A DNA stretch of 64,000 nt from Candidatus Poribacteria bacterium. Lineage in GTDB: Bacteria > Poribacteria > WGA-4E > WGA-3G. Under the pieces are notes generated by a model. It ran no database searches. It was given only the letters and a program-made list of their open reading frames with translations, and was not told where the DNA came from. Each line of letters starts with the position of its first letter. The stretch's first letter is position 1. The stretch lies in assembly GCA_965205015.1 (NCBI GenBank), contig OZ242029.1, positions 3,968,001 through 4,032,000 of the forward strand, read 5' to 3'. A program made the translations under genes and the position numbers. Below, in pieces: positions 29,617-46,898 of the stretch.

Positions 29617-30399
29617 ATGTGCCTAACAAAATGGCAGAGCGTCGTTTTATTATGTGGGCTTACCTTCTTCTTAACAATCAGACTTAGTTTCGCCGCGGGT
29701 GGATTTGAATATCTTCCCGATGAGGCGACCCTTGGCTTGTGGCATTTTGACGGTGGCGATCTAACAGATACTTCCGATAATGCTGTTAAGGGTGAAGTCG
29801 AAGGGAAAGCCGGGTGGGATGAGAGGCAAGAATGGAACAAAGAGGCTAAACTTGGGAAATCATTTGTTTTTGATGGCAATACGGTGATCTCCCTCGGCGA
29901 AGCGAAGGTGCTTATCCCGAAAGTGGAGATCACAATTGAAGCTTGGGTTTATCCCGAAGATTTGACGGGATGGCGACTTATCTGTACGAATTGGGATGGA
30001 CCGCCCGGTGCCTATCATCTGGGAGTCCAGAACGGCATTGCTAAGTTCCACATTAATACTGAAAAAGGCGTTGCGTTCGCTGGTGCGACAAAACCGTTGG
30101 AATTAGAGGAATGGCAACACGTCGCTGGTACTTATGATTCTAACCAAATTAAACTCTATATTGATGGAAAAGAGGTTGGCGCAACGAACCATGGGGGTAA
30201 ACTACAGAGTGCTGGATTCGATGTCATTATTGGCAGCAAGAACACCCGTCAGTTTAATTGGACGGGTTTAATGGACGAAGTCCGAATCAGCGATGTCGCC
30301 AGAGAGGTTGATGTGCTAAGCCCAAATTTGGATGCACCACAGGCAGTCGAATTCTCTGAACTGACGCTGCCACTTATATGGGGATCCCTAAAAAAATAG
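29617..30399 (+). CDS. Secreted LamG-like jellyroll protein with C-terminal WG motif
   Basis: Signal peptide; GLWHFD, ITIEAWV, WQHVAGTYD, LYIDG, GLMDEVRIS; tail AVEFSELTLPLIWGSLKK. Confidence 0.88.
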   Translation: MCLTKWQSVVLLCGLTFFLTIRLSFAAGGFEYLPDEATLGLWHFDGGDLTDTSDNAVKGEVEGKAGWDERQEWNKEAKLGKSFVFDGNTVISLGEAKVLIPKVEITIEAWVYPEDLTGWRLICTNWDGPPGAYHLGVQNGIAKFHINTEKGVAFAGATKPLELEEWQHVAGTYDSNQIKLYIDGKEVGATNHGGKLQSAGFDVIIGSKNTRQFNWTGLMDEVRISDVAREVDVLSPNLDAPQAVEFSELTLPLIWGSLKK

Positions 30400-30460
30400 G
30401 GAATAAAAACGTTCGCTTTCGGAGAAGTTGGTGGGTCTCCAAAACCCACTGTGGAAAAAT

Positions 30461-32209
30461 ATGACAAAGGAAGTTAGATCCGCGCTAACACGCAGCACTG
30501 CTTTTTTACTTGAACAACACTATAAAGACCCAAACTTTGAGGGACAACTCTCCTCAAGCACGTTTCCGACCTGCGCGTATGCGTGGATCGAACTCGTCCG
30601 AGGCGAAACTCCGGATCCGGCGCTGCTCGAATGGTTTATCGCAAATCAGAACGAAGATGGCGGTTGGGGATTGGATACCGCAAATGTCTCAAATGCAGAA
30701 GCGACCCGATTTGTTCAGTTAATACTGGCGCAAACCCATCAACGTTCACCCGATACCGCCCTCCAAAAACTATTGGCTTCCGCTCCGAAATTTGAACCGC
30801 ACCTTGCCTTAGTCAAATTGGCTTATGCGGCTTTTAATCAGTTCGATTGGAACGAGTTGACGCTGTCGAAAAACGCCCTACCCCTCATGAAACTCGCAAG
30901 ACAACTGACGAAGATTCCGCTACTTGGCAGTCGATTGAAGCCGCCGAGACATCGTCTGCCGCCTGTCGCGCTTTTCAACACGCCACTGTTCGATGCCCTC
31001 TTCATTGCTGAACAACATACACTCGTGCCTGTCTTCATCATGATCGAACTGAACACGGCAAGACGCCCTGAGATGATAACCTCTCTCGCGGCATGGTTGA
31101 AAACGCACGTCCTCAGCGATGGGAGCTGGTTCCGGGTGAACTACATCACGGCGCTCTCTGTTTTAGCGCTTATTGAACTCCAAGAAAAGTGGGAAGCGGA
31201 TGAAGAAGTCGGTGAGTTTATCGAACGGGGCATCGCTTGGCTACGGACGACGCGAAATCGTGATGGCGGGTGTCGAGAGGCGTTAAACCTGAATGTGTGG
31301 GACACGGCGTTGAGCATCATTGCGCTAACAGAGGTGTACGCTACACACAATGAATCGGAGTTGCAAACCTCGCTTACAGATGAATTCACAAATAAAGTGA
31401 AACGCGCCGCACAGTGGCTCGTCGACCATCAAAATGAAGATGGTGGTTGGGCGTTTTCAGGGTTAGGTGACAGTACGCTTCCAAGCGATGCCGACGATAC
31501 TGCCCTCGGCACCCTTGCCCTGATTCGCTCCCTCCTTGTCGGTTCACCCATCGATCGCGAGGCGTTGAATAACGCAGTTCACCGCGGTATCGCATGGATA
31601 AAGACACAACAGGTACGTGATGGCAGTTGGAGCACATATCAACCCGGTCAAGGAGATGTTGGCTGCGTGAGTATCACAGCCCATGCAATTGAAGCACTCC
31701 TTGCCTTTGATCAGAGCGATATCCCTGATATACCGTATGTTCGCGAGGCGATGATTGCTGGAATCTACTGGCTCCGCAAACAAATGAATCGCGATGGATA
31801 TTGGCGAGATCTCTGGTTAGCAAAAGATACGTATGGCACCGCCTGCGCTATCGCAGCATTTGTCAAGGTCGGACTTAAAAATGTTCCCGAAGTTCAGCGG
31901 GGTGTCGCATGGCTCGAAGGCACGCAAAATGCCGATGGTGGATGGGGAGAAGATATGTTTGGCAACCCCACTGAAAGCACAGTGGAACAGACGGCATGGA
32001 GCACCTACGCACTCCTGCTTGCGAATCCCGAAAATACCGCTGCTGAACGGGGGATAGCGTTTCTGCTCAAACACCAGCGGGAAGACGGTTCATGGCTCGA
32101 AAAATGCGTCGGCATCTATTGGGAGATCATCGGTGGCTACGCCGATCCGATTTACGCCTCCGTTTTCCCGATACTTGCCCTCAACCAGATGGCAATCAGC
32201 AGTCAGTAG
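30461..32209 (+). CDS. Squalene-hopene cyclase-like class II terpene cyclase / prenyltransferase-repeat protein
   Basis: Multiple QW repeats (QNEDGGW, QNADGGWGE, QREDGSW), VWDTAL and DADDTA (DxDD) motif. Confidence 0.8.
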   Translation: MTKEVRSALTRSTAFLLEQHYKDPNFEGQLSSSTFPTCAYAWIELVRGETPDPALLEWFIANQNEDGGWGLDTANVSNAEATRFVQLILAQTHQRSPDTALQKLLASAPKFEPHLALVKLAYAAFNQFDWNELTLSKNALPLMKLARQLTKIPLLGSRLKPPRHRLPPVALFNTPLFDALFIAEQHTLVPVFIMIELNTARRPEMITSLAAWLKTHVLSDGSWFRVNYITALSVLALIELQEKWEADEEVGEFIERGIAWLRTTRNRDGGCREALNLNVWDTALSIIALTEVYATHNESELQTSLTDEFTNKVKRAAQWLVDHQNEDGGWAFSGLGDSTLPSDADDTALGTLALIRSLLVGSPIDREALNNAVHRGIAWIKTQQVRDGSWSTYQPGQGDVGCVSITAHAIEALLAFDQSDIPDIPYVREAMIAGIYWLRKQMNRDGYWRDLWLAKDTYGTACAIAAFVKVGLKNVPEVQRGVAWLEGTQNADGGWGEDMFGNPTESTVEQTAWSTYALLLANPENTAAERGIAFLLKHQREDGSWLEKCVGIYWEIIGGYADPIYASVFPILALNQMAISSQ

Positions 32210-32230
32210 TCAGCCATCAGTCTTTGGATA

Positions 32231-32306: not shown

Positions 32307-32347
32307 TTCTTGCCCTCTTCTACTCCAGCAACCGCTTAAGCTCAGAC

Positions 32348-33083: not shown

Positions 33084-34049
33084 CTATTTGCGCTTTAGTT
33101 CGCCCCACACCGTTGTCAACGTGAGGGGTGTAGGTTCAACGGGCAATCTTGGATTATTAATCCAATCGGCGAAATAGTTCTCTCCGCTATGGGTGAGTTG
33201 TTGAGGTTTCCTGCGTTTCAAATCAACCTTAAAGAGTTGTTTGTGATGCCCAATACTCCTTTCATAGAGAATCTCACTACCATTTGGAGACCAAGTTGGG
33301 TGGCTAATAACAGGCTCTTTAACAACGTGCTTCACCCACATTCCATCTCTGTCCAAGATGTAGAGTGTTGTTTTATCGGTCACTATCAGGGCACCGACGT
33401 GATTCTTAGGGCGCTTGACACCCGCAAAAGCGATTTTATTGTCGGTGGGTGACCATGCCGGATGCCACATAAAGAATCCCCTTCTTGGAAGAAGGGTCGT
33501 TATGACATCGGTATTCAGATTAATAGTGCGAATGCTACCGCTGCTTAACCACCCGTAGGCTATTTCTGTCCCATCGGGGGACCAGGTAGGATGCCCGTAA
33601 TGTCCGTCTATCTGTGTCAAATGTTTCTCGGAACCTCCAGTTATTGCTGCGATTTTTATGGATTTCTCTTCAGGGACGGCGTAAGCAATTCGTTTTCCAT
33701 CCGGTGACCACGTAGGTTGTTCTCTACGGGCATTTTCGCGGAAAACACGTTGGACGTTTTTGCCATCTGGATTCATTAGGTAGAGATCGTAGAAACCATC
33801 GCGGTTAGAAACAAACAGTATTTGTTCTCCATCCGGTGACCAGGTGGGATTGAAATCCTTATCGGCGTGTTGCGTTAAATTGATTTGTCCACTGCCATCG
33901 GGATTCATGACGTAGATTTCGGGGTTGCCGTCGCGGGTTGATGTAAAGACAATTTCGCCCGTCCCGGCAGCTTTTGCCGAAATTGGGTAAAGATTCTGAC
34001 ATAATAGCATGAAGACGATAGCGAAAAAGAGTTTTAAGAAGTATCCCAT
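33084..34049 (-). CDS. TolB-like PD40 beta-propeller protein with C-terminal WG motif
   Basis: Signal peptide; five P.WSP repeats; tail LPVEPTPLTLTTVWGELKRK; GGAGG RBS. Confidence 0.88.
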   Translation of the reverse strand: MGYFLKLFFAIVFMLLCQNLYPISAKAAGTGEIVFTSTRDGNPEIYVMNPDGSGQINLTQHADKDFNPTWSPDGEQILFVSNRDGFYDLYLMNPDGKNVQRVFRENARREQPTWSPDGKRIAYAVPEEKSIKIAAITGGSEKHLTQIDGHYGHPTWSPDGTEIAYGWLSSGSIRTINLNTDVITTLLPRRGFFMWHPAWSPTDNKIAFAGVKRPKNHVGALIVTDKTTLYILDRDGMWVKHVVKEPVISHPTWSPNGSEILYERSIGHHKQLFKVDLKRRKPQQLTHSGENYFADWINNPRLPVEPTPLTLTTVWGELKRK

Positions 34050-34108: not shown

Positions 34109-37069
34109 CTATTCTTCTGAAGTTTCCGTTTCCATTTGGGTGCTCCCATTGTTCTGCCAATTGTCCGCTTTCTCCTTGAGTTTCTCGAGGTCCTCAGGGT
34201 TTTTGATGTCTACAATGTGTGGCGTAATGATGATAACAATCTCAGCGTCTTCAACAGCGTTCTCAGTGTTTTTGAAGAGTCTGCCGATGAGTGGGATGTC
34301 TCCCAAAATCGGAAGTTTGTTCTCCACCTGCTTCTGTTTCTTACGGATGATGCCACCGACGACAATCTGCTGCCCGTCCTCGACATCAATGTAGACACTG
34401 ATAGCGTTGTCATCGGTGATGGGTGCGTTGAAATCAGTAAACTCAATAAAGTTGCTGGCACTGATATTCTCAATATCCAATCCGATAGTCCGCTTGCCAT
34501 CCTCGCCTACTTGTGACTTAGCGATATAAGGCGTGAGCGAGATATTGATACCTACAGGCGGATCAATGAAATCATAGTTGAAAAGCGGTTGTGAGACGGT
34601 CTCCCCAAGGATACTCGTCGTATCAACGCTTTGGAGATACGGTATACGGCGACCGCTACTCCATGTGGCGTTCCAACTATCACGCGTCAAAAGTGATGGC
34701 GTTGAAAGGGTTTGCACCTTGTTCTCACGCATCAGCGTGTGGAGGAGTGCCATATACTCCTTGGTTGCCAAACCGAGGTTAAACCCTGAGATTTCCTGTT
34801 CAAGACCGAATTGTGTGTCGAGTTCCCCAATCAGTGGATTTCCGGGTCTCGGAGAGACACCAAAGATTTTGTTCTCTTTCGCAGTAAGTTCAATGCCGAG
34901 TTTCGTCGTTTCATCGAGTGTCACTTCGAGAATCTGGATATCGATCCAGACCTGACCTCGGACGAAGTCTAACTTCTGAATGAGTGCTTTGACCTGCGCG
35001 AAGTATCGTTGCTGCGTCGTGATAATCAGGGAATTCGTATCGGCATCCGCAAAGACGGTGACTTTTCCACGTAAGGAATTGATGTCTTGCTGTTCCTGTC
35101 TACCCCCGGAAGCAAAGAAACGGCTGAAACTAAAACCCCCGCTACCTTCCTCTCCCTCCCAGACCTGTTGAAGGACTTCTTGGAGATGATCTGCGCTCCC
35201 ATATTCAAGGCGAATGGCTTCCGTAATCTCCTTTTGCCCTGCCGGTGTCGGAACGTCCATGGAATTAATAAACTCCGTGATGAGATCAAAGTTGCGTTGT
35301 GTAGCGGTTGAGACGATGACAGCGTTGAGTGTCGGATATGGCTCGGCAGTGACGTTGCCAGCGAGTGAACCTTGGGTCTGATTGCGGTTCCGTTCCGCGA
35401 GGAAAAAGAAAAAGTTTCCCGTATTTTGTGAGCTACCTTGATAGACGTTATTGATGACAGCGGCGACGTTCTCTGCGTCGGCATATTCGAGTTTATACAT
35501 GCGAGTGCCCCACTCTTGGTCGGGCATATTGACATCGAGTCTTTTGATGAGCGCATCAATGGTTTCAAAGTTCTGTGCACTCGTCGATATAAGGATGGCA
35601 TTGAGCCGTAAATCGGCGACGAGGTGTACCTCGCCTTGGACGCCGAAACCAGTAGTGCTTTCAGTCGGTTCCCGGTCCCTGCGTCGCCACCACGGGAGGC
35701 CTCTGTCTGCGCCGGCACTTCCCCCTTCAAAGAGGTCTTGCAGACTCGGGACAAGGGTTTCCGCATCCGCGAACTTCAGAAAATAGAGTCTAATTTCTTC
35801 TTGCGTTTGTTCTTGGTCAAGTTCATTGATGACCTTCTCGATAATAGAGAAGTTGCGAGGGTCCGATGAAACGACAACGACATTGATTCGGTCGTTATGG
35901 GAAACATTGACAGTGCCGACAATGCCTTGTGCTGTATCGATACCCTGCTCGCGTTGATAGGTTCTCAATTTCGCACGATCCCAAGCGTTCATTCTGCGGC
36001 GATTATCCGGAACATCACCGGTAAGTACTTCTTGTAGGGTTTGGGCGACATCTGCAGCGGTTGCGTATTTCAGTCGGAAAGTGCGTATCTCGGTTGTGAC
36101 GTTCGGAGCAATGTCGAGTTCTTTGATAATTTCTTGGAGGAAAACAAGGTTCGCCTCGGACGCTTTGAGCACGAGTGAATTTGAGTTGACATCGGCGATA
36201 ATCTTGATTCTGCCTTGAAGCACTTCATAGCCGGTGCCATCGGCTTTCATTTCCGCTGCTGCGGCTTTTGCTTGTTCCGCATCGCCCCCGAGTCGACCGC
36301 GTTGTCCTTTGCCCTCTTCGTTTTCGCCCTCCTCTTGAAAAACGTTTGTGAGCGTTTGTGCCAACGGTTCCGCTTCAGCGTAAGTGAGCGGCACAATGAG
36401 AATCTTTAAAGGGAAGCGTTCGCCTTCATCTGCAATCTGGAGAATGGAAACAATACGGTGTATATTAGAAGCGACATCAGTAATGACGAGTGCGTTCGTA
36501 GCGGAATCTGCGAAAATATTTGCTTGTTTATTGAGAAGCGGCTTGAGTCGATCTACCTGCTCGGATGCGACAACGGTATCTAATTGGATGATGTAGGTTT
36601 GGATCTCGTCGGTCATGTCAACCCGTTCGGGGTTTGGTGGGATGCTTTTAACAATGCCTTTCGTTGCTATCGCGCGTGCGAAGGTTGTGACCAAGAGGGT
36701 GCTATCGGTTTGAATAAGCGTAAGATCATATTGCGTGAGGACGGTTTTGATTTTTTCAATGACTTCTTCAATCGTTACATTGTTGAGGTTAATCAGTGAG
36801 AATTTTTTATCCTTAATGTCTTCTTCACTCGCGATGATAGTGAGGTCGGCCTCTCGCGACAGCCATTCAAAGAGGCCTTTGAGTTCTTGGCTTGTAAAGT
36901 TAAAGTCGAACCGGATTGCGCGCCCTTGTTCGTCAGTTTCGGCGACACGCATTGTTGGTTGCTGTTCTTGCGCGTAAAGTTCAGCACACCCAACAATCAG
37001 CAATCCCAAACAAAATAGTGAAATAAGCGAAAACCGACCAGGATTATTGTGATTTATGTGATTTACCAT
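34109..37069 (-). CDS. gspD: Type II secretion secretin with extra N-domain repeats
   Basis: N0 plus six LxYAxA-type N domains; QVWIDIQILEV, LSTPSLLT, KLPILGDIPLIGRLFK, IIITPHIV. Confidence 0.92.
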   Translation of the reverse strand: MVNHINHNNPGRFSLISLFCLGLLIVGCAELYAQEQQPTMRVAETDEQGRAIRFDFNFTSQELKGLFEWLSREADLTIIASEEDIKDKKFSLINLNNVTIEEVIEKIKTVLTQYDLTLIQTDSTLLVTTFARAIATKGIVKSIPPNPERVDMTDEIQTYIIQLDTVVASEQVDRLKPLLNKQANIFADSATNALVITDVASNIHRIVSILQIADEGERFPLKILIVPLTYAEAEPLAQTLTNVFQEEGENEEGKGQRGRLGGDAEQAKAAAAEMKADGTGYEVLQGRIKIIADVNSNSLVLKASEANLVFLQEIIKELDIAPNVTTEIRTFRLKYATAADVAQTLQEVLTGDVPDNRRRMNAWDRAKLRTYQREQGIDTAQGIVGTVNVSHNDRINVVVVSSDPRNFSIIEKVINELDQEQTQEEIRLYFLKFADAETLVPSLQDLFEGGSAGADRGLPWWRRRDREPTESTTGFGVQGEVHLVADLRLNAILISTSAQNFETIDALIKRLDVNMPDQEWGTRMYKLEYADAENVAAVINNVYQGSSQNTGNFFFFLAERNRNQTQGSLAGNVTAEPYPTLNAVIVSTATQRNFDLITEFINSMDVPTPAGQKEITEAIRLEYGSADHLQEVLQQVWEGEEGSGGFSFSRFFASGGRQEQQDINSLRGKVTVFADADTNSLIITTQQRYFAQVKALIQKLDFVRGQVWIDIQILEVTLDETTKLGIELTAKENKIFGVSPRPGNPLIGELDTQFGLEQEISGFNLGLATKEYMALLHTLMRENKVQTLSTPSLLTRDSWNATWSSGRRIPYLQSVDTTSILGETVSQPLFNYDFIDPPVGINISLTPYIAKSQVGEDGKRTIGLDIENISASNFIEFTDFNAPITDDNAISVYIDVEDGQQIVVGGIIRKKQKQVENKLPILGDIPLIGRLFKNTENAVEDAEIVIIITPHIVDIKNPEDLEKLKEKADNWQNNGSTQMETETSEE

Positions 37070-37119
37070 GATGAAGAAACCTCTTATGACTGACAACTGA
37101 TGATTATACTGATGACTCA

Positions 37120-38424
37120 TTAAAATATTCGAGCGATGAGAAGCATGTCCACATTCAAATTTGTCCCATCTTCAGAATTGCGACCCCGTGCACCTGGACG
37201 CGCGCTTGTTTGCTTGTCGGCGGAGATCCGCAAATCTCGCACCGTGAGCCATTTGGCGCCAGTTTCGATGAGATGGTTCAAGTTAACAAGTTTCTCAAGA
37301 TTCGTTTTGAATTTCATTTCAACTGTGTAGTGTTCTATTTGATATGTCAGTGGTGCCAGCGCGAGGTGCCCTAAAAGTGTTGCGCGCTGTTCCTGAATCT
37401 CCTCAATGTATTTAGCAAGCGCATGTTGGCGTTCCCCTATATCTACGGGATCTTCTGATTGCGCGAGAATATCCAAAAAGACACTATTCCGCTGCAATTG
37501 GATGTCAACGGTAGCCGGCTTTGCACCGATACCGAAAATACCTGGCGTAGCGGCGGTTTTGACGCTGTGGAGTTGTGTCTCAAAGAAATCCTGCCTCGAA
37601 TCCGTCGCCCCTCGAAGCTGCTGTATTATCATGTTTTTGATAAATGCTGCAAGTTCGACTCGGACAGGGACGGGGATTGCCTCTGGCAGTGAAGAAAATC
37701 TCCACTGCGCCGCGGCATCCATTGAATGAGGCGGCTTTGCCTTATCCGTGCGTTCTGTTTCCTGTGTTGTTGATTCTGTTTCAGACATTTTACCGTCTAT
37801 TTCGCTGGGGGCAGGCACAGGCTCCGCCCCGACTTTATCTGTTTCGGATTCCGTTCCCGATAACCACGCATCCATTAGTATGTTGAAGGTATCCTCTTCT
37901 GCTTGCTGCTCCGCTACCTCAGCCAGCTCCATTTCTTCCGTCTCTATATGTTTAAGATAGAGATAGAGAACAAGGTTGCCTCGGTTCTGTACTGTCAGTT
38001 TCTGTGTTTGTTTAGCGGTTCCGGGTTTCGTGAGGAGCTGATAATTCTGTTGAATACCGGCGCGTCTCACGAGTCCATCAATTCGAGATCTAATAACGGT
38101 TTCGGGCAGCTCAGTATCAAAAATTGTAGGGGCGGGTTTTGTGCCTGCCCGTGCACGTTGCGAGTTCGTAGAGACTTGCGGATTCTCAGTGAGTGCCAAG
38201 CCAGTCTCTTTGTACATCTCGGCTTCAATGGGCTTAAGTATTTCTGCGGCATGTACCAAATTTTGGGTCTGCAACAACTGTTCTCGTTTCGCTTTTGTGT
38301 CTTGATTCACAAACAAACGATAAAAGACGGGACCTACCTGCATGGCGAGCAAAATTAAAAGCAGTCCACCCAAGATACCAAGTAAGATTCGGCTTCGCGG
38401 TGTTAATTGGAGATCCAGTTCCAT
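37120..38424 (-). CDS. T2SS GspM/PilO-like inner membrane platform protein, enlarged
   Basis: LTPRSRILL plus TM N-terminus; C-terminal LVNLNHLIE..WLTVRDLRI; position between gspL and gspD. Confidence 0.6.
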   Translation of the reverse strand: MELDLQLTPRSRILLGILGGLLLILLAMQVGPVFYRLFVNQDTKAKREQLLQTQNLVHAAEILKPIEAEMYKETGLALTENPQVSTNSQRARAGTKPAPTIFDTELPETVIRSRIDGLVRRAGIQQNYQLLTKPGTAKQTQKLTVQNRGNLVLYLYLKHIETEEMELAEVAEQQAEEDTFNILMDAWLSGTESETDKVGAEPVPAPSEIDGKMSETESTTQETERTDKAKPPHSMDAAAQWRFSSLPEAIPVPVRVELAAFIKNMIIQQLRGATDSRQDFFETQLHSVKTAATPGIFGIGAKPATVDIQLQRNSVFLDILAQSEDPVDIGERQHALAKYIEEIQEQRATLLGHLALAPLTYQIEHYTVEMKFKTNLEKLVNLNHLIETGAKWLTVRDLRISADKQTSARPGARGRNSEDGTNLNVDMLLIARIF

Positions 38425-38431
38425 TTTTTAA

Positions 38432-40165: not shown

Positions 40166-40170
40166 TCTTT

Positions 40171-40295
40171 TATCAGCAGTCAGCAATCAGCGGTCGGCAA
40201 TCAGTAGGAAACATCTAAGCAAAACACTCTATTTTGTCAGAAACCTCTTTACTAAAGGTTTCCGATGGTCTCCGATGGTTCCGATAGCCATTCTT
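40171..40295. repeat. Intergenic repeat element (CAGCAGT heptamers plus TCCGATGG repeats)
   Basis: 40242-40280 is 30/39 identical to the reverse complement of 42811-42849. Confidence 0.65.
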
Positions 40296-40311
40296 GCTGA
40301 AAGCCACTCCT

Positions 40312-41871
40312 TCAGTCCTGTTGCCAATATTGTACAATTATTTGGTTGCCTGTCCGATCAATGATGCCGATACAGGTCGAAACAACCTTTCCAGCAACAT
40401 CAACACCCTTTGCTTCAATACGATACCCGTGCGAACGGTAGGTAATCCCATCAACAACTTCGCGAAACGTTCCAAAATCAATCCCCTCTACTTGGGACAC
40501 TTGTGAGATATTCGTGAATGGATTTCCTTTGATCTCATCTTCAGTAAGACCCTGTACCTGCGGGGCATCGGATACATCCTCTTCACGGCGTTCGACGATC
40601 GCTTGTGCCTTTTGTGGGTCCATCCCCGGTAGCAGGGCTAATATCTCAGGCGGTGCTGTGTTTATATTAATGAGTCCTTGGCGCGTCTCTCCATCTTTTA
40701 GGGTTATTTTATCAACAATGCTGATGAATTCCTGCTGCGTCAACATCTTTACCTCTTTGATTGCATCGATGTTCTGGAAAAGGCCTTGTCCCTCACGATG
40801 GCTGATAATGCGTTCGGCAATACCTTGGTCAATCCCGTCTAAGGACTCCAAAGTTTCGACATCGGCGGTATTGATATTAACTTTCCCACCCTCATCGCTG
40901 GCTGCCGGCTGTTGATTGCCGGTTTCCGTCAGTAAAGGGGTTTCTGATGAAGTTTCACCCTGTTCCTGATTGCTGGTCGCTGACTGCTGATTGCTATCTT
41001 CAGTCGTCAATTGGTCTCGGATATTGTTGAAAAGGTCATCGGAAACCGCTTGGACATCCAATAGTGCGGCAAATTTGTCAAAATCACGTTGCTGGATGAG
41101 CGATTCCGCCTCAGCTTGCGTGAACACAGGTTGATTTTGCTGTGCAGTAACTTTCGTCAACGCCTCTGCATCCGCTGTATTGACGTTGACGAGCGGTTCT
41201 CCACCCGGATCGGTGCTGGCGTCAACGGAATAAATGGTAGTTAAACCAACAAGTCCGGGAATAGCCGTCAGTTCCTGTTGCTGAAGATTATTCGTTTGCG
41301 AGAATGTTCCTGTGTTCGTGATACTTGATGATGACTGATCGCCGTAAAGAAGTTCGGAGGTCATGCCTTCAACCCGAGCGAGATCTCTAACGGTGCGATA
41401 CGGGCGTCCTTCCACAATTTCGTTAGCAAGAACTTCGGTGCTTGCATCATCTGGGGGAGCGCCTGCCTGTGCGAGCAAGTTGCTGACAAGTCCTACGTCG
41501 GCGGTGTTAATATTAACTTTAGATGCCTCATCTACAACTGTCACTTGATAGTTTAAGAAATTGCCAACCTGAATGCCATCCGCAACCTGCCCTTGGATCG
41601 GTTCAGCCCAAGTTTCGCCGAGTGAGTCAAAAGGGGTTTGGTCACCACGCATAACGGCGAGGGTCCACTCGAAGCCTGCTCTTGCAGCGTAGTGAAACTT
41701 CGATCTGTCCAAGAAATTCCGTTGGGTTCGCTGCTCTATGTGGATTGAATAGAGCAACTGCGCCGCAAGAATGGACAGAATCGTTAGTATCCAGAGCGTT
41801 GAGACGAGAGATAGACCGCTCTGTTCCTTGTAGAATGCGCAGGCGTTCGGTTTTGTGAACCGCATCATCAA
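40312..41871 (-). CDS. gspK: Minor pseudopilin GspK with multiple helix-hairpin-helix (ComEA-like) repeats
   Basis: QSG|LSLVSTLWIL (no E5), DSLGETWA, DEASKVNINTA; four NxNTA repeats. Confidence 0.85.
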   Translation of the reverse strand: MMMRFTKPNACAFYKEQSGLSLVSTLWILTILSILAAQLLYSIHIEQRTQRNFLDRSKFHYAARAGFEWTLAVMRGDQTPFDSLGETWAEPIQGQVADGIQVGNFLNYQVTVVDEASKVNINTADVGLVSNLLAQAGAPPDDASTEVLANEIVEGRPYRTVRDLARVEGMTSELLYGDQSSSSITNTGTFSQTNNLQQQELTAIPGLVGLTTIYSVDASTDPGGEPLVNVNTADAEALTKVTAQQNQPVFTQAEAESLIQQRDFDKFAALLDVQAVSDDLFNNIRDQLTTEDSNQQSATSNQEQGETSSETPLLTETGNQQPAASDEGGKVNINTADVETLESLDGIDQGIAERIISHREGQGLFQNIDAIKEVKMLTQQEFISIVDKITLKDGETRQGLININTAPPEILALLPGMDPQKAQAIVERREEDVSDAPQVQGLTEDEIKGNPFTNISQVSQVEGIDFGTFREVVDGITYRSHGYRIEAKGVDVAGKVVSTCIGIIDRTGNQIIVQYWQQD

Positions 41872-41880
41872 TAAAATCTC

Positions 41881-42891
41881 CTAAGGTCCACCTGCAGTGA
41901 CACTCGCAGGAAGATACACCATCGTCGCTTGCGTCATACCCCTTGATTGGACTGTCGGTGGACTCTGCGTTGTGGCTTGCGCTACATCAATATTCACAGG
42001 TACCCGCGTTTCGCCTTGAACGGTTATGCGAATTTGTACAGCACTTGGAACACTTTCAGCATCGTTCCATGAGGTGCGCCATGCTTCCGCTTCTCCATCG
42101 AAATACTGGAGATCAAAGCTGGCAAGCCCGGCAACAAGTGTTGCGATATTGACATAAATTGGCTCACCATTTTCATCTGTCTCTGGAACCTCACCCGTCT
42201 GTAAGAGCGCACGGATAACAACTTCAGGGTCGAGTGCTGTCGTTGTAACCCGAAAGAGAGCGAACTCACCGCTCTGGGCATCTTCAACAGGGTCTGAACC
42301 CTGTAGGGGTGATATCTCTGTAGCGGATTCGCCGGGTAATGGTTCGGATCCAACAAAATAAGCCACACGCTGCACATCACTTAAAAGTGGCACAGGCGTT
42401 TGCGAGGCGTTCTGAGATTGGAAACTTGCAAGTTGCGCCAAGAACGGATCTGGATCCGTCTTAACGAGCGTGACAAAGCTGAGCATGTCCCTATCGCCTA
42501 ATTGGCTGGGACCATCTTGCGTATAGAAAGCGAGTACTGGATCCTCCAGTGAAATTTGCATGTTGCTGAGGTCCGTCACAATCCGATCCATCGCGACCCG
42601 ACATCTCTGGGCAGCCAATATTTTCCCCTCTGTCCGATGGTAAGCGTCAACGGCTGTTTTGAAAGCAAAATACGCCGAACCGCCGATGATAACGAGGATA
42701 CTGACTGCCATGAGCATCTCAACGAGTGTCAGTCCACTTTCGGTGTATTGACTCAAACCCGCCACTCGTGCTTTGCAGTCTTGTATCGGAGTCGAGTTGG
42801 GGGTTCGGGAAACCGTCGGAAACCGTTGGAACCCCTCAGCAAAGAGATTCTCTGGCTGACTGCTATTAACGCAGGTTTCTTGGGTTTTCAT
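41881..42891 (-). CDS. gspJ: Minor pseudopilin GspJ-like with long leader
   Basis: ESG|LTLVEMLMAV; FDLQYFDG..W..PSAVQIRI; start uncertain (42891 ATG or 42930 GTG). Confidence 0.8.
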   Translation of the reverse strand: MKTQETCVNSSQPENLFAEGFQRFPTVSRTPNSTPIQDCKARVAGLSQYTESGLTLVEMLMAVSILVIIGGSAYFAFKTAVDAYHRTEGKILAAQRCRVAMDRIVTDLSNMQISLEDPVLAFYTQDGPSQLGDRDMLSFVTLVKTDPDPFLAQLASFQSQNASQTPVPLLSDVQRVAYFVGSEPLPGESATEISPLQGSDPVEDAQSGEFALFRVTTTALDPEVVIRALLQTGEVPETDENGEPIYVNIATLVAGLASFDLQYFDGEAEAWRTSWNDAESVPSAVQIRITVQGETRVPVNIDVAQATTQSPPTVQSRGMTQATMVYLPASVTAGGP

Positions 42892-42919
42892 GATTTCTGA
42901 TGCCTTCGTAGAAATATTA

Positions 42920-43369
42920 TCAACCGCCACCCTGCTGCGCTTGTTGTGGCATTTGCCGATCAGCGATATAGGTGCTCATAGACAGTGAACGTTCTCTGTT
43001 TCTATGTATCCATGTGACGGTTACTTGAACCCGACGAATGTTTTCAACCTCTTCAGAATCTACGTCCTCAACGACGGAACGCCAACGATAGCGTGTATTT
43101 TCACCGAACTCGTCAGATTCTTCACCAACATCTGGATACCCCTCCATCTCAATCTCCGCCATCCGATATTTGAGCAGATAGAGTGCGGTCGTACTGTTGT
43201 CTGAAAGTCCTTGGTTCCGCGCAGCGATAGCAAACGCTTGTAACAAGGCTGGCAGGACAGCCGCCAAAATCGCCAACGTCACAAGAACCTCAACGAGGGT
43301 AAAACCGTCTTTTTCTTCTGGTGCTGGGCGCGTTTTTTTTGTGATTCGCAAGGCGTTAAATCCCGTCAT
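42920..43369 (-). CDS. gspI: Minor pseudopilin GspI-like
   Basis: DG|FTLVEVLVTLAIL; YRWRSVV..RRVQVTVTW. Confidence 0.82.
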   Translation of the reverse strand: MTGFNALRITKKTRPAPEEKDGFTLVEVLVTLAILAAVLPALLQAFAIAARNQGLSDNSTTALYLLKYRMAEIEMEGYPDVGEESDEFGENTRYRWRSVVEDVDSEEVENIRRVQVTVTWIHRNRERSLSMSTYIADRQMPQQAQQGGG

Positions 43370-43386
43370 AACTCTGAAAGGTAAAA

Positions 43387-44169
43387 TTAAAAGGAGTCGG
43401 CGGTTTCAAAGCCCAACATCTCGATCTCCTGAGATGTGAGTTGTCGCACACGGACCCGTCCGCTCGCCGCCTCAACAGTGACAGACATTATCTGGTTCCG
43501 CGTGTTCCTGAGATATACGAAAGCATCCTCGGAGGTAGAAGTCGGCGAGAAATAGATGTACGCCACGCCAGAATCAACCTGAACAGTCCTACCGTTGTGG
43601 TTGGTTACCATCGTGGCTAATGTTACATGCTGTTCCATGGAATAGGGTACTCCCAAGATACCGCTGGATCGTGCCAAAGGTACCTGTGAAGCGGAGGTTC
43701 CCGCCGTCGGAAGGGTTTGTAACCCCGAATTCCTGTTTATATTATTCTGTGCAGCCGCTACAGCCGTAGAATTTTGAGCCGTCAGTGTTGACGTAAGCGG
43801 ATTACTTGGGTCAAACGTTTCGCTGGAGGCAAGCCAGTATCGATTGTTGTCAAAATCAAAAACAACGAGATGTGTCGTTTGATCCGTGACTGCCATATCT
43901 CGGGCAAACGTGAGAAGACTGCGGAGTGTATAAGCAGAAGCTTTTAAACGGCGCGTTGTCACGAACCCTTTCAGTGCCGGCATAGAGATTGCTGACAGTA
44001 TACCGATGAGGGTCAAGACGATGAGCAACTCCGTAACTGTGAATGCCGAAGTCCCCGTAGCGACTGGTGGTGGAAGACTGGAAGGCTGGAAGATTGAGCG
44101 GGAGACATTTCTTTCCGCCTTCCCGCCTTCCCGCCTTCCCGCCTTCCCTCTTTCGGTCGGGCGTAACAT
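43387..44169 (-). CDS. gspH: Minor pseudopilin GspH/FimT-like with long leader
   Basis: SA|FTVTELLIVLTLIGIL; ARDMAV; IYFSP; SGRVRV; ATG 4 nt after the gspG stop. Confidence 0.8.
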   Translation of the reverse strand: MLRPTERGKAGRREGGKAERNVSRSIFQPSSLPPPVATGTSAFTVTELLIVLTLIGILSAISMPALKGFVTTRRLKASAYTLRSLLTFARDMAVTDQTTHLVVFDFDNNRYWLASSETFDPSNPLTSTLTAQNSTAVAAAQNNINRNSGLQTLPTAGTSASQVPLARSSGILGVPYSMEQHVTLATMVTNHNGRTVQVDSGVAYIYFSPTSTSEDAFVYLRNTRNQIMSVTVEAASGRVRVRQLTSQEIEMLGFETADSF

Positions 44170-44173
44170 CGTT

Positions 44174-44629
44174 TTAGTAGGCTCCGGTGGTTTCATCAAC
44201 CCAATTGGTAATGTCTGTGTCCAGGTCAGTGCCGCCTACCTTCCCATCCTTACCCATCGAATAGAGGTCGTAGTCGTATCCGTAGTGGGTACTGGGCTGG
44301 CGATAGACGTATGGGTTATTCCATGGATCCACGAAATTGGGACTGTCAATATAGGGACCATCCCAATTGGCGGGGGCAGGGCTCGGTACCCGCCATAAGG
44401 CGCTTAACCCTTGTTCGGTTGTAGGGTATTCACCCGTTGCGATCGCATACTGTTCCAACGCCGTTTTTATGCCGTTAATTTCTGTTTGTGCCTTCGCGAC
44501 TTTTGCTTGCTGCGGGGCGTTGATAACGCGCGGCGCGATGAAGGCAGCCAAAATCCCTAAAATGACGATCACAATCGTCAATTCAATGAGTGTTAAACCC
44601 GACTGATCAGATTTCAGTTGCGCGTACAT
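44174..44629 (-). CDS. gspG: Major pseudopilin GspG
   Basis: SG|LTLIEL, YPTTEQGLSAL, NWDGPY, DPWNNPYVY, YDLYSMGKDG..GG..DITNW. Confidence 0.96.
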   Translation of the reverse strand: MYAQLKSDQSGLTLIELTIVIVILGILAAFIAPRVINAPQQAKVAKAQTEINGIKTALEQYAIATGEYPTTEQGLSALWRVPSPAPANWDGPYIDSPNFVDPWNNPYVYRQPSTHYGYDYDLYSMGKDGKVGGTDLDTDITNWVDETTGAY

Positions 44630-44650
44630 TTTATTTTTCTCCATTTTAGA

Positions 44651-44839
44651 GTTGTCTGTTGTCAGTTTTCAGTGAAGAGGGTTTCTCGTAACAATCTCCC
44701 AAAGTGTTCTAAAGTTATAGAGTCTGTACAGTTGTAAGAGTCATTCGGACGTTCCAAACATCTCTTTCAACTTCCGAACTTCCCAACTTTAGCACACTCT
44801 CAAACTTTTTGCCCTCTTGTAACTGATAACTAAGAACTG
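44651..44839. mobile_element. MITE-like element (~190 bp) with imperfect heptamer-rich terminal inverted repeats
   Basis: Left GTTGTCAGTTTTCAGTGAAGAGGG; right CCCTCTTGTAACTGATAACTAAGAACTG; non-coding. Confidence 0.55.
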
Positions 44840-46066
44840 TTAACCGCTTAATAATTGGTTTGCCTCAAAGATCGGGAGGATCATCGCAACAGCGATAAAC
44901 CCGATAACAAGTCCCATGAGTAAAATGACAAGCGGACCGATGGAACTTGTTAGACGTTCAAGGCTCTTTTTTATTTCTAAATCGTAATATTCAGAGAGTT
45001 TGCTCAGCATGTGGACAGGTTCACCAGATTCCTCGCCAACCGCTACCATGTGGGTGACGAATTCAGGAAAATCCTTGCTTCTACTCAGCTCACGTGCGAG
45101 CGAGGACCCCTGCTCAACTTCCGTTTCTGCTGCGGCGACGACATTACTGTATACCTTATTCCCGATAGTGTCCTTGACGACTTGGAGAGCCGGCAGCATA
45201 CGCACACCATTTTCTAAAAGTGTTGCCATCGTTCGAGTGAAGCGAACAATGGCAAAGGTGCTAAATATGGGGCCGATAAGAGGTAATTTGAGTTTTAGGC
45301 GGTCAAACCAAACTTGACCGGTTTCATGACGGAGATATTGGTTCAAACCTGCTACGCCGACAATGACCGCGAGAAGCCCGAGCCACCAATAGGTTTGAAA
45401 GGCATCGGTCGTCCCAATGAGAATTCGCGTCGGCAGCGGCAATTCGACACCGAGATCGTTGAACATCGCGGTAAATTTCGGTATGACAAGAATCATGAGT
45501 ACTGCAACAGCGGAGACACTCAGTGTTAACAGGATAACTGGATAGAAGAGTGCTGAGATGACATCGTTTTTGAGGAGTCTCTGCCGTTCTGCGAATTCCG
45601 CGAGCCGTTCTAAGACTATGCCAAGGACACCACCACTCTCGCCGGCTCTTACCATGTTGACATAAAGATCAGAAAACACCTTCGGGTGCTGCGTGAGAGC
45701 GTCGTGGAAAGTCGCGCCGTGTTCCACATCGTACTTGACTTGGGAAACAATACGATGAAGTGCAGGATTTTGGATTTGACCGAGTGTAACCTCCAGTGCG
45801 CGTGGCAGCGGGACATGCGCGTTCACCAACGTTGCTAATTGGTACGTAAAGAACTCAACATCCGCTGCCTTGACTCCACGCCCACCGATCTTAAACCAAC
45901 GACGGACATCCGCCGGTGCTGCCTCCTCCGTTTCTTCAACAATGTCTGTGGGCCAATAGCCCATCTGCCGTAAACGAGAAATAAGCTCGGCTTTGGAGTC
46001 AGCTTCTATTGTATTCGTAACGGTACCACCGCCATGGGTGAGTGCTTCATATCGGAATACTGGCAC
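44840..46066 (-). CDS. gspF: T2SS inner membrane protein GspF
   Basis: QLATLVNA, YVNMVRAGESGG, ALFYP, AVGEESG, AMILPIF; GTG start with GGAGAGG RBS. Confidence 0.95.
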   Translation of the reverse strand: MPVFRYEALTHGGGTVTNTIEADSKAELISRLRQMGYWPTDIVEETEEAAPADVRRWFKIGGRGVKAADVEFFTYQLATLVNAHVPLPRALEVTLGQIQNPALHRIVSQVKYDVEHGATFHDALTQHPKVFSDLYVNMVRAGESGGVLGIVLERLAEFAERQRLLKNDVISALFYPVILLTLSVSAVAVLMILVIPKFTAMFNDLGVELPLPTRILIGTTDAFQTYWWLGLLAVIVGVAGLNQYLRHETGQVWFDRLKLKLPLIGPIFSTFAIVRFTRTMATLLENGVRMLPALQVVKDTIGNKVYSNVVAAAETEVEQGSSLARELSRSKDFPEFVTHMVAVGEESGEPVHMLSKLSEYYDLEIKKSLERLTSSIGPLVILLMGLVIGFIAVAMILPIFEANQLLSG

Positions 46067-46106
46067 AATCAACCTCTCCGTCAGAATTCAGGGATACGGG
46101 GATATA

Positions 46107-46898
46107 TTAATACCCTTTCAGACTACCCCACATCGTCGCGAGTTTCGCCTTGGGGGCCACCGATAACCCTCCACTGTTCGGAATACTGTCGCCGGTAATC
46201 ACAACGTTGTCGAATCGCGCTGTTTGATTCGAGAGTCCCAAACCCGCCGCTCCTGTCAGGAAATCTTGGAACCCATTTAATTGCCATGCTTGAAACCGTT
46301 CAGGTTGTCCTTCTTCTTCCGCATGTTGTTTCCTGATAGCGTTAATACGTTCAAAAGTCCGACGGTTTGGAAGTTGGATAGGCCCAATAACCTGATTACC
46401 GTTAATCCAAAAATTTAGGATATTTTCTTTAACATCTAACTTTAACTTCGACCACTTGTTTAATTTTAAAGATCGATGAAATTTAAAATGTGAAAATACG
46501 AATGTTTGTGGGTCCTGAAAATTGCCAGCAGCAAACCCAGTCCTGGAGACGTTATCGCCAAGTAGCGTATCGCCGATGAAACACCATGCAACCCAACTCC
46601 CTTTGACCCGAGCGGCAATAGCGATATAGCCGGGACCTGGCTTTTCAAGCGGTTTGACATCAAATTCGATGGTGTAATCGCGCCACGTCTCATCACCGAC
46701 CGTGAGTAAACGAATCCAGCCGTCAGGGCTAACCGCATGAAGTTCACGACCAACGATTTTCCAAGAACCGGGCAGGGCATCACGAACGAGAATCTCTTTC
46801 CATGCGCCGAAGTTATTATCAAAATCTTCCAAAAATGTTCCTGCTCTTGCCGAAAAGGCGGCGAGGAAAATAAGACTTACAATCACTACCAACTTCAT
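46107..46898 (-). CDS. Secreted DUF1080-like beta-sandwich protein with C-terminal WG motif
   Basis: Signal peptide (ARA|G); WRDYTIEFDVK, GAAGL..ARFDNVVITG; tail LSVAPKAKLATMWGSLKGY. Confidence 0.7.
   Translation of the reverse strand: MKLVVIVSLIFLAAFSARAGTFLEDFDNNFGAWKEILVRDALPGSWKIVGRELHAVSPDGWIRLLTVGDETWRDYTIEFDVKPLEKPGPGYIAIAARVKGSWVAWCFIGDTLLGDNVSRTGFAAGNFQDPQTFVFSHFKFHRSLKLNKWSKLKLDVKENILNFWINGNQVIGPIQLPNRRTFERINAIRKQHAEEEGQPERFQAWQLNGFQDFLTGAAGLGLSNQTARFDNVVITGDSIPNSGGLSVAPKAKLATMWGSLKGY

Follow-up and report, generated by a model that had tools for sequence, protein, structure and literature searches.

A conserved C-terminal tail on numerous small exported proteins of Poribacteria, a candidate tag for envelope sorting

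Sortases, exosortases, rhombosortase and the T9SS are sorting machines whose discovery came from short C-terminal tags. LPXTG/sortase, PEP-CTERM/exosortase, the T2SS-linked GlyGly-CTERM/rhombosortase and MYXO-CTERM are tripartite signals read by membrane sorting enzymes; in GlyGly-CTERM a Gly-Gly motif precedes a transmembrane helix and a basic tail, and PEP-CTERM and LPXTG have a signature motif, a transmembrane helix and an Arg/Lys cluster. The T9SS is the known reader of C-terminal signals on Sec-exported proteins, and both the OMP beta-signal and the C-termini read by PDZ domains (OMP YxF by DegS) depend on an aromatic last residue with a free carboxylate. Here we describe a C-terminal tail from Poribacteria, a dominant, uncultured phylum of sponge symbionts, and compare it with these systems.

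The window analysed (a single stretch of 64,000 nucleotides) encodes three proteins with a common C-terminal tail, and all three genes and their tails lie where the initial annotation had placed them. The first is an exported LamG protein on the forward strand (29617..30399; Laminin_G_3, PF13385, E 1.3e-27), which ends in AVEFSELTLPLIWGSLKK; its 18-residue tail (30343..30396, forward strand) finishes with WGSLK and one further residue. The second, on the reverse strand (33084..34049), is a PD40/TolB-like beta-propeller protein (PF07676, E 2.5e-33) ending in PVEPTPLTLTTVWGELKRK, with a tail of 19 residues (33087..33143, reverse strand) that closes with WGELK and two residues. The third, a DUF1080-like (ConA-like) protein encoded on the reverse strand between gspE and gspF (46107..46898), ends in SVAPKAKLATMWGSLKGY, and its tail (46110..46163, reverse strand) has 18 residues, including WGSLK and two more. 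A typical Sec-type N-terminus is present on all three, in agreement with the signal peptides first proposed. The DUF1080-like assignment comes from weak matches to PF06439 and PF21708 (18 bits for PF06439, under the Pfam cut-off); its homologues match PF06439 and have the NCBI name DUF1080, and 118 of the 120 best of them retain the tail. The carriers had been described as three unrelated folds, but LamG (PF13385) and DUF1080/3-keto-disaccharide hydrolase (PF06439) are both ConA-like jelly rolls, leaving only two fold classes.

The three tails have the pattern ...V.P..(K)L.T.WG.LK in common, followed by 1–2 residues. A six-frame translation of the window gives 538 stop-to-stop segments of at least 50 aa with five matches to WG.[LIVM][KR], three of which are the carrier tails, 1–2 residues ahead of the stop. 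Over a larger set of 175 tails the consensus is L-A-V-E-P-x-G-K-L-(A/T)-T-T-W-G-x-(L/I)-K, about 17 residues, usually with 1–3 more after it. Numbering the tryptophan as 0, W is present in 100% of these tails, K(+4) in 99%, V(-10), K(-5) and L(-4) in 87% each, T(-2) and G(+1) in 85% each, and P(-8) in 61%. The tail has a net charge of +2.7 (n=175) and is non-hydrophobic, with a longest hydrophobic run of at most 5 residues and a best 15-residue hydropathy window of at most 1.45; it is indeed too polar for a transmembrane anchor, as had been suggested. The stretch upstream is not notably rich in Pro and Gly (G 10%, D 9%, I 8%; n=175 tails), and the Pro/Gly linker of the initial annotation is not borne out.

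In all DNA examined, 158 of 161 distinct motif matches end 0–12 residues before a stop codon, and no match lies further than 60 residues from it. The extension past the lysine is 1–3 residues long in 135 of 175 tails, with a range of 0–10, and three proteins of one genome (G006) have 32–37 residues after the motif. Because this variable extension comes after the motif, the free C-terminus is not the feature that is read. An AlphaFold2 model of the DUF1080-like carrier is confident over residues 19–237 and gives pLDDT below 50 and no secondary structure for residues 243–263. The earlier suggestion that the tail could prove to be a domain-closing strand is thus not supported by the model, in which the tail is predicted to lie outside the confidently folded domain.

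The tail is found throughout Poribacteria and is restricted to the phylum. A 22-position tail profile, used for both genome and protein searches, has a match in every one of 175 Poribacteria genomes (E≤1e-3), and in a search of 300 genomes at E≤1e-4 it matches all 175 Poribacteria and none of 125 other genomes, which are mostly small (1.2–4.4 Mb among the 20 listed). Against 1.84 billion proteins the profile recovers 491 cluster representatives at E≤1e-3, and the motif lies within 12 residues of the C-terminus in 138 of the best 149 matches inspected. In the closest complete genome to the window (G001) there are 54 tail ORFs in the 1.2 Mb sampled, or one per 22 kb and about 245 genome-wide, and these are 54 of 903 gene calls, approximately 6% of genes, the calls being crude here as throughout. 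The suggestion that such tails are abundant in Poribacteria is therefore correct, with about 250 carriers per genome.

All 50 sampled tail ORFs of at least 150 aa have a signal-peptide-like N-terminus by a permissive home-made heuristic that is also positive for 325 of 764 other ORFs (43%), and none of the 50 has a lipobox. Together with the positions of the motif matches, this agrees with confinement of the tail to the C-termini of signal-peptide proteins. The carriers are mostly binding modules of 200–450 aa (LamG, DUF1080, Kelch, PD40 and CBM-type); among 48 scanned against Pfam there are 18 Laminin_G_3, 7 DUF1080-type, 5 Kelch, 4 PD40 and 1 CBM_4_9, and 13 have no Pfam match. In carriers with a called domain, about 20–60 residues separate the end of the best-matched Pfam stretch from the C-terminus. 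The interpretation of the tail as a portable C-terminal tag is supported.

Like the tripartite sorting signals, the tail is a short C-terminal signature on many unrelated exported proteins of one lineage, with paralogous expansion, but it has no hydrophobic helix, no separate basic cluster and no match to an NCBIfam sorting-domain model. We rejected GlyGly-CTERM as an identity for the tail on the absence of a sorting-domain match and of a hydrophobic stretch, and PEP-CTERM and LPXTG on the absence of either motif from the logo, of a model match and of a hydrophobic stretch; no dedicated sorting-enzyme gene was found nearby. The OMP beta-signal and the OMP YxF peptide read by DegS are similarly short C-terminal peptides of exported proteins with beta-prone residues and periplasmic reading, whereas only 44 of 177 tails have an aromatic last residue and the motif is followed by 0–10 variable residues, or by the 32–37 of the G006 proteins. 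An OMP beta-signal was also rejected, since few ends are aromatic and the carrier domains are soluble and of lectin-like or propeller type. A functional analogy can be drawn with dockerin-cohesin, in which many small binding or enzymatic modules have one common C-terminal docking element, but dockerin is a folded Ca-binding domain of ~70 aa and thus unlike the tail. A search of the last 45 residues of 21 tails (E≤10) gave no tail-specific NCBIfam match, the sole hit being to an unrelated lipoprotein model (E 0.17), and the full-length window proteins match no tail model in NCBIfam or Pfam either. The distinction from LPXTG, PEP-CTERM, GlyGly-CTERM and T9SS CTDs drawn at the outset therefore holds. 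We found no published description of the tail, including in the available part of Kamke 2014 (PMC3909097), and it is apparently undescribed.

We lean, by a small margin, towards the interpretation that this tail of about 17 residues, lying outside the folded domain on some 250 small Sec-exported proteins, serves in envelope sorting or docking as a recognition tag for a putative partner. A carrier would cross the inner membrane by Sec and lose its signal peptide; its binding domain would then fold, with the tail left exposed on a short linker. The invariant Trp-Gly and Lys of the tail would be recognised by a common, phylum-specific envelope partner, which would sort the carrier to the outer membrane, or keep it at that membrane or on the cell surface. 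The tail may fold into a short hairpin around the P-x-G-K turn, although it is unstructured in the AlphaFold2 model, which gives this no support; the hairpin and a protein partner that recognises the tail are inferred, and the role in sorting or docking is proposed by analogy with other C-terminal tags. More tentatively, the tail might be the address label of an undescribed Poribacteria route for outer-membrane sorting or surface display, serving about 6% of genes and about 250 lectin-like modules per cell, and such a route might use either a reduced T9SS-like set (SprA-like, PorV-like and giant PorU-like proteins, with no GldL or GldM found) or a receptor of no known family.

The tag marks about 250 exported proteins of sugar-binding type per genome and has no curated model, and a small tail profile would flag this cargo class at once. 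The lectin-like repertoire probably mediates contact with the host matrix or with food glycans. Once found, the partner would show how the symbionts display this repertoire, and could bring to light a T9SS-type signal of minimal size or else a sorting route that is new.

Because Poribacteria also encode T9SS-type tails together with SprA-, PorV- and PorU-like proteins, a T9SS-like route is a live rival, in which the tail would be an extremely reduced T9SS-type signal, with the tailed proteins crossing the outer membrane through the SprA-like pore, and with PorV-like carriers and giant PorU-like peptidases acting on them. We consider this unlikely. In five Poribacteria genomes the T9SS type A CTD model TIGR04183 has 34–121 matches per genome at E≤0.01, those listed all being above the curated cut-off, and these CTDs sit on ORFs mostly of 350–5000 aa. 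All five genomes also have a 2000–2300-aa ORF matching SprA (TIGR04189) in several collinear pieces, PorV-like barrels (one orthologue is present in 167 of 175 genomes), and several PorU-like ORFs of about 1750–2200 aa (247–342 bits; three in G001), with all SprA, PorV and PorU matches under the curated cut-offs. Models for GldL and GldM have no match in any of the five, and control genomes likewise gave none. The tail resembles a T9SS CTD in being at the extreme C-terminus of Sec-exported proteins, on many unrelated cargo proteins per genome, joined by a linker and with a basic residue near the end, and its own genomes encode genuine type A CTDs and the SprA/PorV/PorU-like proteins.

Such signals can shrink: Prevotella intermedia is reported to use short CTDs of 40–55 aa, with three strands and a basic residue that is invariant in motif E (PMC11969387), and export is reported to depend on the final 22 residues of the HBP35 CTD (PMC3120885). 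However, a T9SS CTD is a folded element of 3–7 strands with motifs B and D (GxY), whereas the tail has 17–20 residues, under half of the shortest described CTD, and neither motif. TIGR04183 matches none of 21 tail segments of 45 aa (E≤10) and none of three full carrier proteins (E≤1), and we rejected identity with the type A CTD (TIGR04183/PF18962) on this lack of a model match and on the size of the core, 17 residues as against ~70–100 aa. The carriers, at 200–450 aa, are also smaller than most CTD-bearing ORFs of these Poribacteria, and the tail has no linkage to T9SS-like genes: a tail gene adjoins the SprA-like gene in one of five genomes and lies upstream of a PorV-like gene in 3 of 30, so that adjacency is not conserved.

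The initial annotation proposed that the tail directs export or surface attachment as a tag served by the atypical T2SS of this window, read by secretin N-domains, the pseudopilus tip or accessory proteins, with the operon-embedded carriers as dedicated cargo. The T2SS-like operon, recognised by Pfam matches and relevant here as context, occupies 34109..48722 on the reverse strand and comprises gspE (46947–48722), gspF (44840–46072), gspG (44174–44644), an H-like gene (43387–44199), gspI (42920–43369), gspJ (41881–42930), gspK with two HHH_3 domains (40312–41871), a PilM/PilN-like fusion (38432–40186), a gene for a 434-aa protein (37120–38424) and the secretin gene gspD (34109–37120). The gspF product is 96% identical to its counterpart on a Candidatus Poribacteria chromosome; the gsp gene order is kept in 79 Poribacteria loci, the named records among these related loci all being Poribacteria. 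The DUF1080-like gene is separated by 48 nt from gspE and 34 nt from gspF, and the PD40 gene begins 44–59 nt after gspD depending on start codon choice, both on the same strand as the gsp genes as described; these two are probably co-transcribed with them. Embedding in the operon thus applies to the DUF1080-like gene and, just after the operon, to the PD40 gene, but not to the LamG gene, which is in an operon of its own.

Some observations favour a T2SS link. The two co-directional genes are separated from gsp genes by gaps of only about 34–59 nt, and the gsp cluster of G001 has four tail genes within it or immediately behind it. A co-directional tail gene is present within 5 kb after gspD in 18 of 60 sampled genomes, where 300 kb contain 39 tail ORFs compared with about 13.5 expected; these 39 collapse to about two orthologous arrays. 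GlyGly-CTERM provides a precedent for a T2SS-linked C-terminal tag, whereas canonical T2SS substrates are not known to have a linear signal. Tag (175/175) and T2SS (a gspD C-terminal orthologue in 172/175) are both near-universal in Poribacteria, and their phylogenetic co-occurrence is for that reason uninformative; one genome (G066, possibly incomplete) has tails and no GspD or GspF match.

The position of the carriers relative to background argues against this link. Windows of 64 kb with at least three tail genes make up 50% of G001, three per 64 kb being the genome median, and 17.3-kb windows with at least three make up 11%. The gsp loci, 1.58 Mb in total, contain 23 tail ORFs, compared with one per 22 kb genome-wide, and hence show no enrichment near gsp loci above background; the remaining carriers, about 240 per genome, lie away from gsp genes. 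The carriers are no closer to gsp loci than genome-wide abundance predicts, an outcome that was to count against the T2SS link when it was proposed; the link is not supported and we regard it as improbable, though some functional connection to the T2SS may exist. Since tail genes are approximately 6% of genes and are scattered everywhere, the placement of two carriers at the gsp operon looks incidental, and adjacency to T2SS genes is no evidence of T2SS cargo for a gene class of this size.

The flanking genes themselves vary. Of 79 related loci, 19 have the DUF1080-like insert between gspE and gspF; it is limited to one clade of 56 rows in which 5–11 gains or losses are needed, and its presence differs even between near-identical gspF sequences. 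It is the sole tail-bearing family among 44 extra ORFs within gsp clusters, and in an RNA-library contig from a relative gspE is joined straight to gspF. The slot after gspD is empty in most sampled genomes, and where occupied the gene differs between the window, G001 and other clades, with GT2 directly following gspD in at least nine genomes. The window PD40 gene was found after gspD in none of 61 other genomes (60 sampled regions and G001), and the best PD40 matches in the sampled regions are paralogues with 38–41% identity on the other strand.

It is similarly doubtful that the tail acts with no protein receptor, as a small peptide, basic and with a Trp, that attaches to the envelope itself (LPS, peptidoglycan or the membrane interface), or that is trimmed after the invariant Lys and cross-linked, so holding lectin-like modules at the envelope. 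The net positive charge, the invariant Trp and Lys and the variable extension beyond Lys are consistent with this, as is the spacing of L(-4), W(0) and L/I(+3) in the logo, which would also fit one face of a short amphipathic helix; there are precedents in the amphipathic C-terminal anchors of PBP5 type and in Braun's lipoprotein with its C-terminal Lys. However, over about 250 paralogues per genome in 175 genomes the residues V, P, K, L, T, W, G and K are conserved by position much more tightly than generic lipid or polymer binding predicts, and a hydrophobic moment would not by itself account for a fixed Gly(+1) or Thr(-2). A purely structural role, as a strand completing the carrier fold or in carrier-carrier oligomerisation, would suit the beta-prone V, L, T, T and W but is very improbable for a tail that is common to at least four Pfam domain families, lies beyond the end of the Pfam envelopes, and is predicted by AlphaFold2 to be detached from a domain that is already complete and confident.

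The window LamG gene heads a LamG–SHC-like–GT2 operon on the opposite strand, outside the gsp operon and converging on it, and six of the 60 regions sampled downstream of gspD from other Poribacteria have the same LamG–SHC–GT2 order.

Three genes in the window encode exported proteins that end in a shared C-terminal peptide of about 17 residues with a W-G-x-L/I-K core (the tail), and both genes and tails lie exactly where the initial annotation placed them. The first (29617–30399, + strand) encodes a LamG protein (Laminin_G_3, Pfam E 1.3e-27) ending AVEFSELTLPLIWGSLKK, the second (33084–34049, − strand) a PD40/TolB-like propeller (PD40, Pfam E 2.5e-33) ending PVEPTPLTLTTVWGELKRK, and the third (46107–46898, − strand) a DUF1080-like protein ending SVAPKAKLATMWGSLKGY, whose Pfam 3-keto-disaccharide-hydrolase/DUF1080 matches are sub-threshold and whose homologues match PF06439 and are named DUF1080 by NCBI. 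The N-termini of all three have one or two basic residues, a hydrophobic stretch and an A-x-A-like site. In a six-frame translation of the window (538 segments) the pattern WG.[LIVM][KR] occurs five times, and three of these occurrences end one or two residues before the stops of the three carriers, a coincidence that is far from chance. No Pfam or NCBIfam model covers the tail in the three window proteins.

Aligned as a logo, 175 tails give the consensus L(-12) A V E P x G K L A/T T T W(0) G x L/I K(+4), with conservation of 100% at the tryptophan, 99% at K(+4), 87% each at V(-10), K(-5) and L(-4), and 85% each at T(-2) and G(+1); the net charge is +2.7. Between one and three residues follow K(+4) in 135 of the 175 tails (range 0–10). 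Across all DNA examined there are 161 distinct profile matches: 158 terminate 0–12 residues before the stop, three 13–60 residues before it, and none farther. A signal-peptide-like N-terminus, called by a permissive home-made rule, is present in 50/50 tail ORFs of at least 150 aa, compared with 325/764 other ORFs, and a lipobox in 0/50 of the same tail ORFs. The expectation that the tail would be confined to the C-termini of signal-peptide-like proteins is therefore borne out, with the N-termini judged heuristically. Some encapsulin and microcompartment targeting peptides have a '...GSLK'-like ending; we set this possibility aside because the tail carriers all have signal-peptide-like N-termini. 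Pfam assigns 48 carriers to Laminin_G_3 (18), DUF1080-type (7), Kelch (5), PD40 (4) and CBM_4_9 (1), with 13 giving no match, and in carriers with an assigned domain the best-matched stretch ends about 20–60 residues before the C-terminus.

The tail fails the defining tests of each tag family considered. It differs from LPXTG, PEP-CTERM and GlyGly-CTERM signals in having neither helix nor basic cluster, from the type IX secretion (T9SS) CTD in matching no CTD model and falling short of CTD length, and from the outer membrane protein beta-signal in that most tails lack a terminal aromatic residue. Its longest hydrophobic run is at most 5 residues and its best 15-residue hydropathy window at most 1.45, so that it cannot span a membrane, in agreement with the earlier view that it is unfit as a transmembrane anchor. 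Searched with the C-terminal 45 residues of 21 carriers, NCBIfam gives no sorting-domain match (E≤10), and the single match of any kind, at E 0.17, is to an unrelated lipoprotein model. Literature searches on the motif itself and on Poribacteria in connection with sorting, type II or type IX secretion yielded no description of the tail.

The tail is both abundant and restricted to the phylum in the genomes searched. A 22-position profile built from eight tails gives at least 69–150 matches in each of five Poribacteria genomes (best 150 of up to 379 candidates scored; across genome searches the best 29–150 candidates per genome were scored). It matches 175/175 Poribacteria genomes at E≤1e-3, and in a search of 300 genomes at E≤1e-4 it is found again in 175/175 Poribacteria and in 0/125 further genomes (1.2–4.4 Mb among the 20 listed). 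Genomes low in the tail were considered as natural knock-outs and rejected: G022, G046, G040, G034 and G006 keep 14–64 matches (E≤1) with canonical tails, and the tail is absent from none. A 37-position profile compared with 1.84 billion cluster representatives recovers 491 proteins at E≤1e-3; in the best 149 of these, the motif lies no more than 12 residues from the C-terminus in 138, and the other 11 comprise six with longer extensions and five unrelated repeat proteins matching the linker part of the profile.

Genome-wide counts were taken not from the window's own genome but from its closest complete relative (G001), a Candidatus Poribacteria chromosome whose gspF product shares 96% identity with the window's, sampled as three 400-kb blocks (1.2 Mb). 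These contain 54 tail ORFs, one per 22 kb, or 6% of 903 crude, heuristic gene calls; extrapolation gives about 245 per 5.5 Mb, which fits the 246–292 profile candidates of a first look. Genes of the IS605 OrfB/TnpB type, with a Cas12f1-like TNB domain, directly adjoin tail genes in G001 at L112:3934-5172 and L138:7440-8597 (L-numbers denote DNA regions of the compared Poribacteria genomes), and might mobilize genes of this class.

We favor, with moderate confidence, the interpretation that the tail is a modular recognition peptide read by an envelope partner for sorting or docking. The binding domain would fold once Sec export is done, with the tail still accessible at the end of its linker; the sequence suggests that the tail may form a small hairpin at the P-x-G-K turn. 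A shared, Poribacteria-specific envelope partner could then read the tail through the invariant Trp-Gly and the Lys, and would sort the lectin-like module to the outer membrane or the cell surface, or dock it there, much as C-terminal sorting tags in general work. That a variable extension follows the motif speaks against the reading of a free C-terminus, as in PDZ-type recognition or the beta-signal. Three LamG-like proteins of one genome (L248, L261; G006:C30:3674-7566) have a conserved extension of 32–37 residues after the motif, which therefore need not be terminal.

An alternative explanation is that the tail is an ultra-short T9SS-type signal. The single-cell study of Kamke et al. 2014 (PMC3909097) reported T9SS-type tails on poribacterial proteins, with T9SS structural genes not found; complete genomes change that picture. 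In five Poribacteria genomes the CTD model TIGR04183 gives 34–121 matches per genome (E≤0.01), every listed match being over the curated cut-off, in ORFs mostly of 350–5000 aa. The same five genomes each have an SprA-like ORF of 2000–2300 aa matched in collinear pieces, several PorV-like barrels, one with an orthologue in 167/175 genomes, and several giant PorU-like ORFs of about 1750–2200 aa (3 in G001, one of them with a PorV-like gene following immediately); the SprA-, PorV- and PorU-like matches are all below curated cut-offs. These genes and CTD sites include G001:C1:2754900-2758814, 2802632-2807635 and 483062-484162 (L277 and L308 in part), with others in G002–G005. NCBIfam models for GldL and GldM match 0/5 genomes and are equally silent in control genomes. 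Short T9SS signals exist, such as the 40–55-aa three-strand CTDs of Prevotella intermedia (PMC11969387), and export of HBP35 depends on the final 22 residues of its CTD (PMC3120885); a T9SS-like route for a 17-residue tail is thus conceivable. We nevertheless regard it as unlikely, given that the tail has neither a CTD model match nor CTD length and that contextual support was not found. A tail gene is the divergent neighbor of the SprA-like gene in 1/5 genomes (G001 only), a tail gene lies just upstream of a PorV-like gene in 3/30 loci, all close relatives of one genome, and a tail ahead of a T9SS CTD occurs in 0/28 CTD ORFs examined and, by eye, in 0/19 CTD proteins of the G001 sample.

In 30/30 loci (L278–L307) two genes follow the PorV-like gene: the first encodes a conserved exported protein of about 270 aa, the second a protein of about 220–240 aa. 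A24-type, prepilin-peptidase-like membrane proteins adjoin Kelch and PD40 tail-gene arrays in G001, where a tail gene lies no more than about 2.5 kb from 4/5 copies in the 1.2 Mb. With one query, this family gives seven matches in G001 (copies or fragments), one in G003 and none in G002, G004 and G005; being missing from three of five genomes, it cannot be general machinery. The flanking cassette is lineage-specific (L116:12123-13256, L117:17151-18284, L147:13659-14825 and L147:18056-19186 in G001) and consists of the A24-type gene (about 378 aa, with an Arc_PepC C-domain), a small ORF, a GHMP-kinase-like gene and sigma-70 r2/r4 fragments.

The initial annotation had proposed that the tail is a signal served by the type II secretion system (T2SS) encoded in the window. 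By Pfam, this T2SS-like operon (34109–48722, − strand) runs gspE, the DUF1080-like gene, gspF, gspG, an H-like gene, gspI, gspJ, gspK, a PilM/PilN-like fusion, a gene for an unassigned 434-aa protein, and gspD, a secretin with six Secretin_N stretches, with the PD40 gene next; HEAT-repeat and DUF3352 proteins are encoded upstream. Gaps of about 34–59 nt flank both embedded tail genes, which makes co-transcription with the gsp genes plausible. These two carriers are probably co-expressed with the gsp genes, and some residual link to the T2SS may exist. The LamG gene is on the opposite strand, heading a LamG/squalene-hopene-cyclase-like (prenyltransferase-toroid)/GT2 operon (29617–33052, +) that is convergent on gspD and conserved in L188, L194, L195, L197, L211 and L228; a TonB-dependent receptor gene lies beyond it. 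The GspK-like minor pseudopilin (40312–41871, −) has two HHH_3 (ComEA-like helix-hairpin-helix) domains, the PilM/PilN-like fusion is present and GspC is not recognizable; the cluster is perhaps something other than a classical exoprotein T2SS.

The specific T2SS reading is not supported by the distribution of tail genes. The median 64-kb window of G001 has three, and at least three occur in 50% of 64-kb and 11% of 17.3-kb windows; the count in our window is ordinary. Across 79 gsp loci (1.58 Mb), among which the named records are all Poribacteria, there are 23 tail ORFs, one per 69 kb, which is below the genome average and opposite to the enrichment near gsp genes that had been anticipated. 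The DUF1080-like insert between gspE and gspF is the sole tail-bearing family among 44 extra ORFs within gsp clusters and is present in 19/79 loci (18 intact, one fragment; two copies in two loci). In a quick gspF tree, all 20 insert carriers (window included) fall in one 56-row clade (SH-aLRT 98) and the insert is in 0/24 rows outside it; its distribution requires 5 changes on well-supported branches alone, or 11 on the tree as drawn, and its presence differs even between near-identical gspF sequences. A contig from a sponge metatranscriptome run (X1; 7% of sampled words present, contigs only, giving no reading of transcription or operon structure) joins gspE directly to gspF, skipping exactly the 865-nt insert (window junction 46080/46946). 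It represents a relative lacking the DUF1080-like gene and fits a genomic presence/absence polymorphism.

The site after gspD is similarly variable. From 60 of 172 gspD-bearing genomes, a non-random sample chosen for long contigs and spread of identity, we took the 5 kb that follow gspD and found at least one co-directional tail gene in 18/60 and none in 42/60. Of the 18, ten have a common three-gene array, and the remaining eight have one gene in common, with a tail similar to that of the array's third gene. The 39 tail ORFs in 300 kb, more than the roughly 13.5 expected, reduce to about two orthologous arrays. At least nine genomes have a GT2 gene directly after gspD, G001 has three different tail genes there, and no orthologue of the window's PD40 gene occupies this site in the 60 sampled regions or in G001. 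Given the two arrays, the GT2-first genomes and the lack of PD40 orthologues, the site appears to be a permissive position at the operon's end, where genes of a very abundant class have been taken up repeatedly. Co-occurrence is uninformative, since both tail and T2SS are near-universal in the phylum: gspD is found in 172/175 genomes, two of the three genomes without a match carry pieces of gsp genes where contigs end, and one genome (G066, completeness not established) has tails and no GspD or GspF match. By density, insert, gspD site and co-occurrence, the tail is not detectably tied to the T2SS, and we consider a T2SS cargo signal improbable.

Two further features of gsp clusters were observed. 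In one Poribacteria clade, two or three full-length secretin copies in tandem end the operon (G002:C1:3373104-3380337; many genomes with gspD 75–85% identical), and ORFs of about 147 aa between gspF and gspG (L020:11282-11725, L027:11283-11726, L044:11283-11738, L059:11289-11726) repeat the GspF C-terminus, which suggests a partial gspF duplication.

That the tail binds, or is cross-linked, directly to LPS, peptidoglycan or membrane, we judge about as improbable as a T2SS cargo signal. A structural strand closing the domain, which the initial annotation had named as a competing account, is very improbable, as in the AlphaFold2 model of the DUF1080-like protein (75-row alignment, mean pLDDT 82.7) a jelly roll is confidently predicted at residues 19–237 and residues 243–263 lie outside it with pLDDT below 50 and no predicted secondary structure. 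The tail is kept in 118/120 of the best homologues of this protein.
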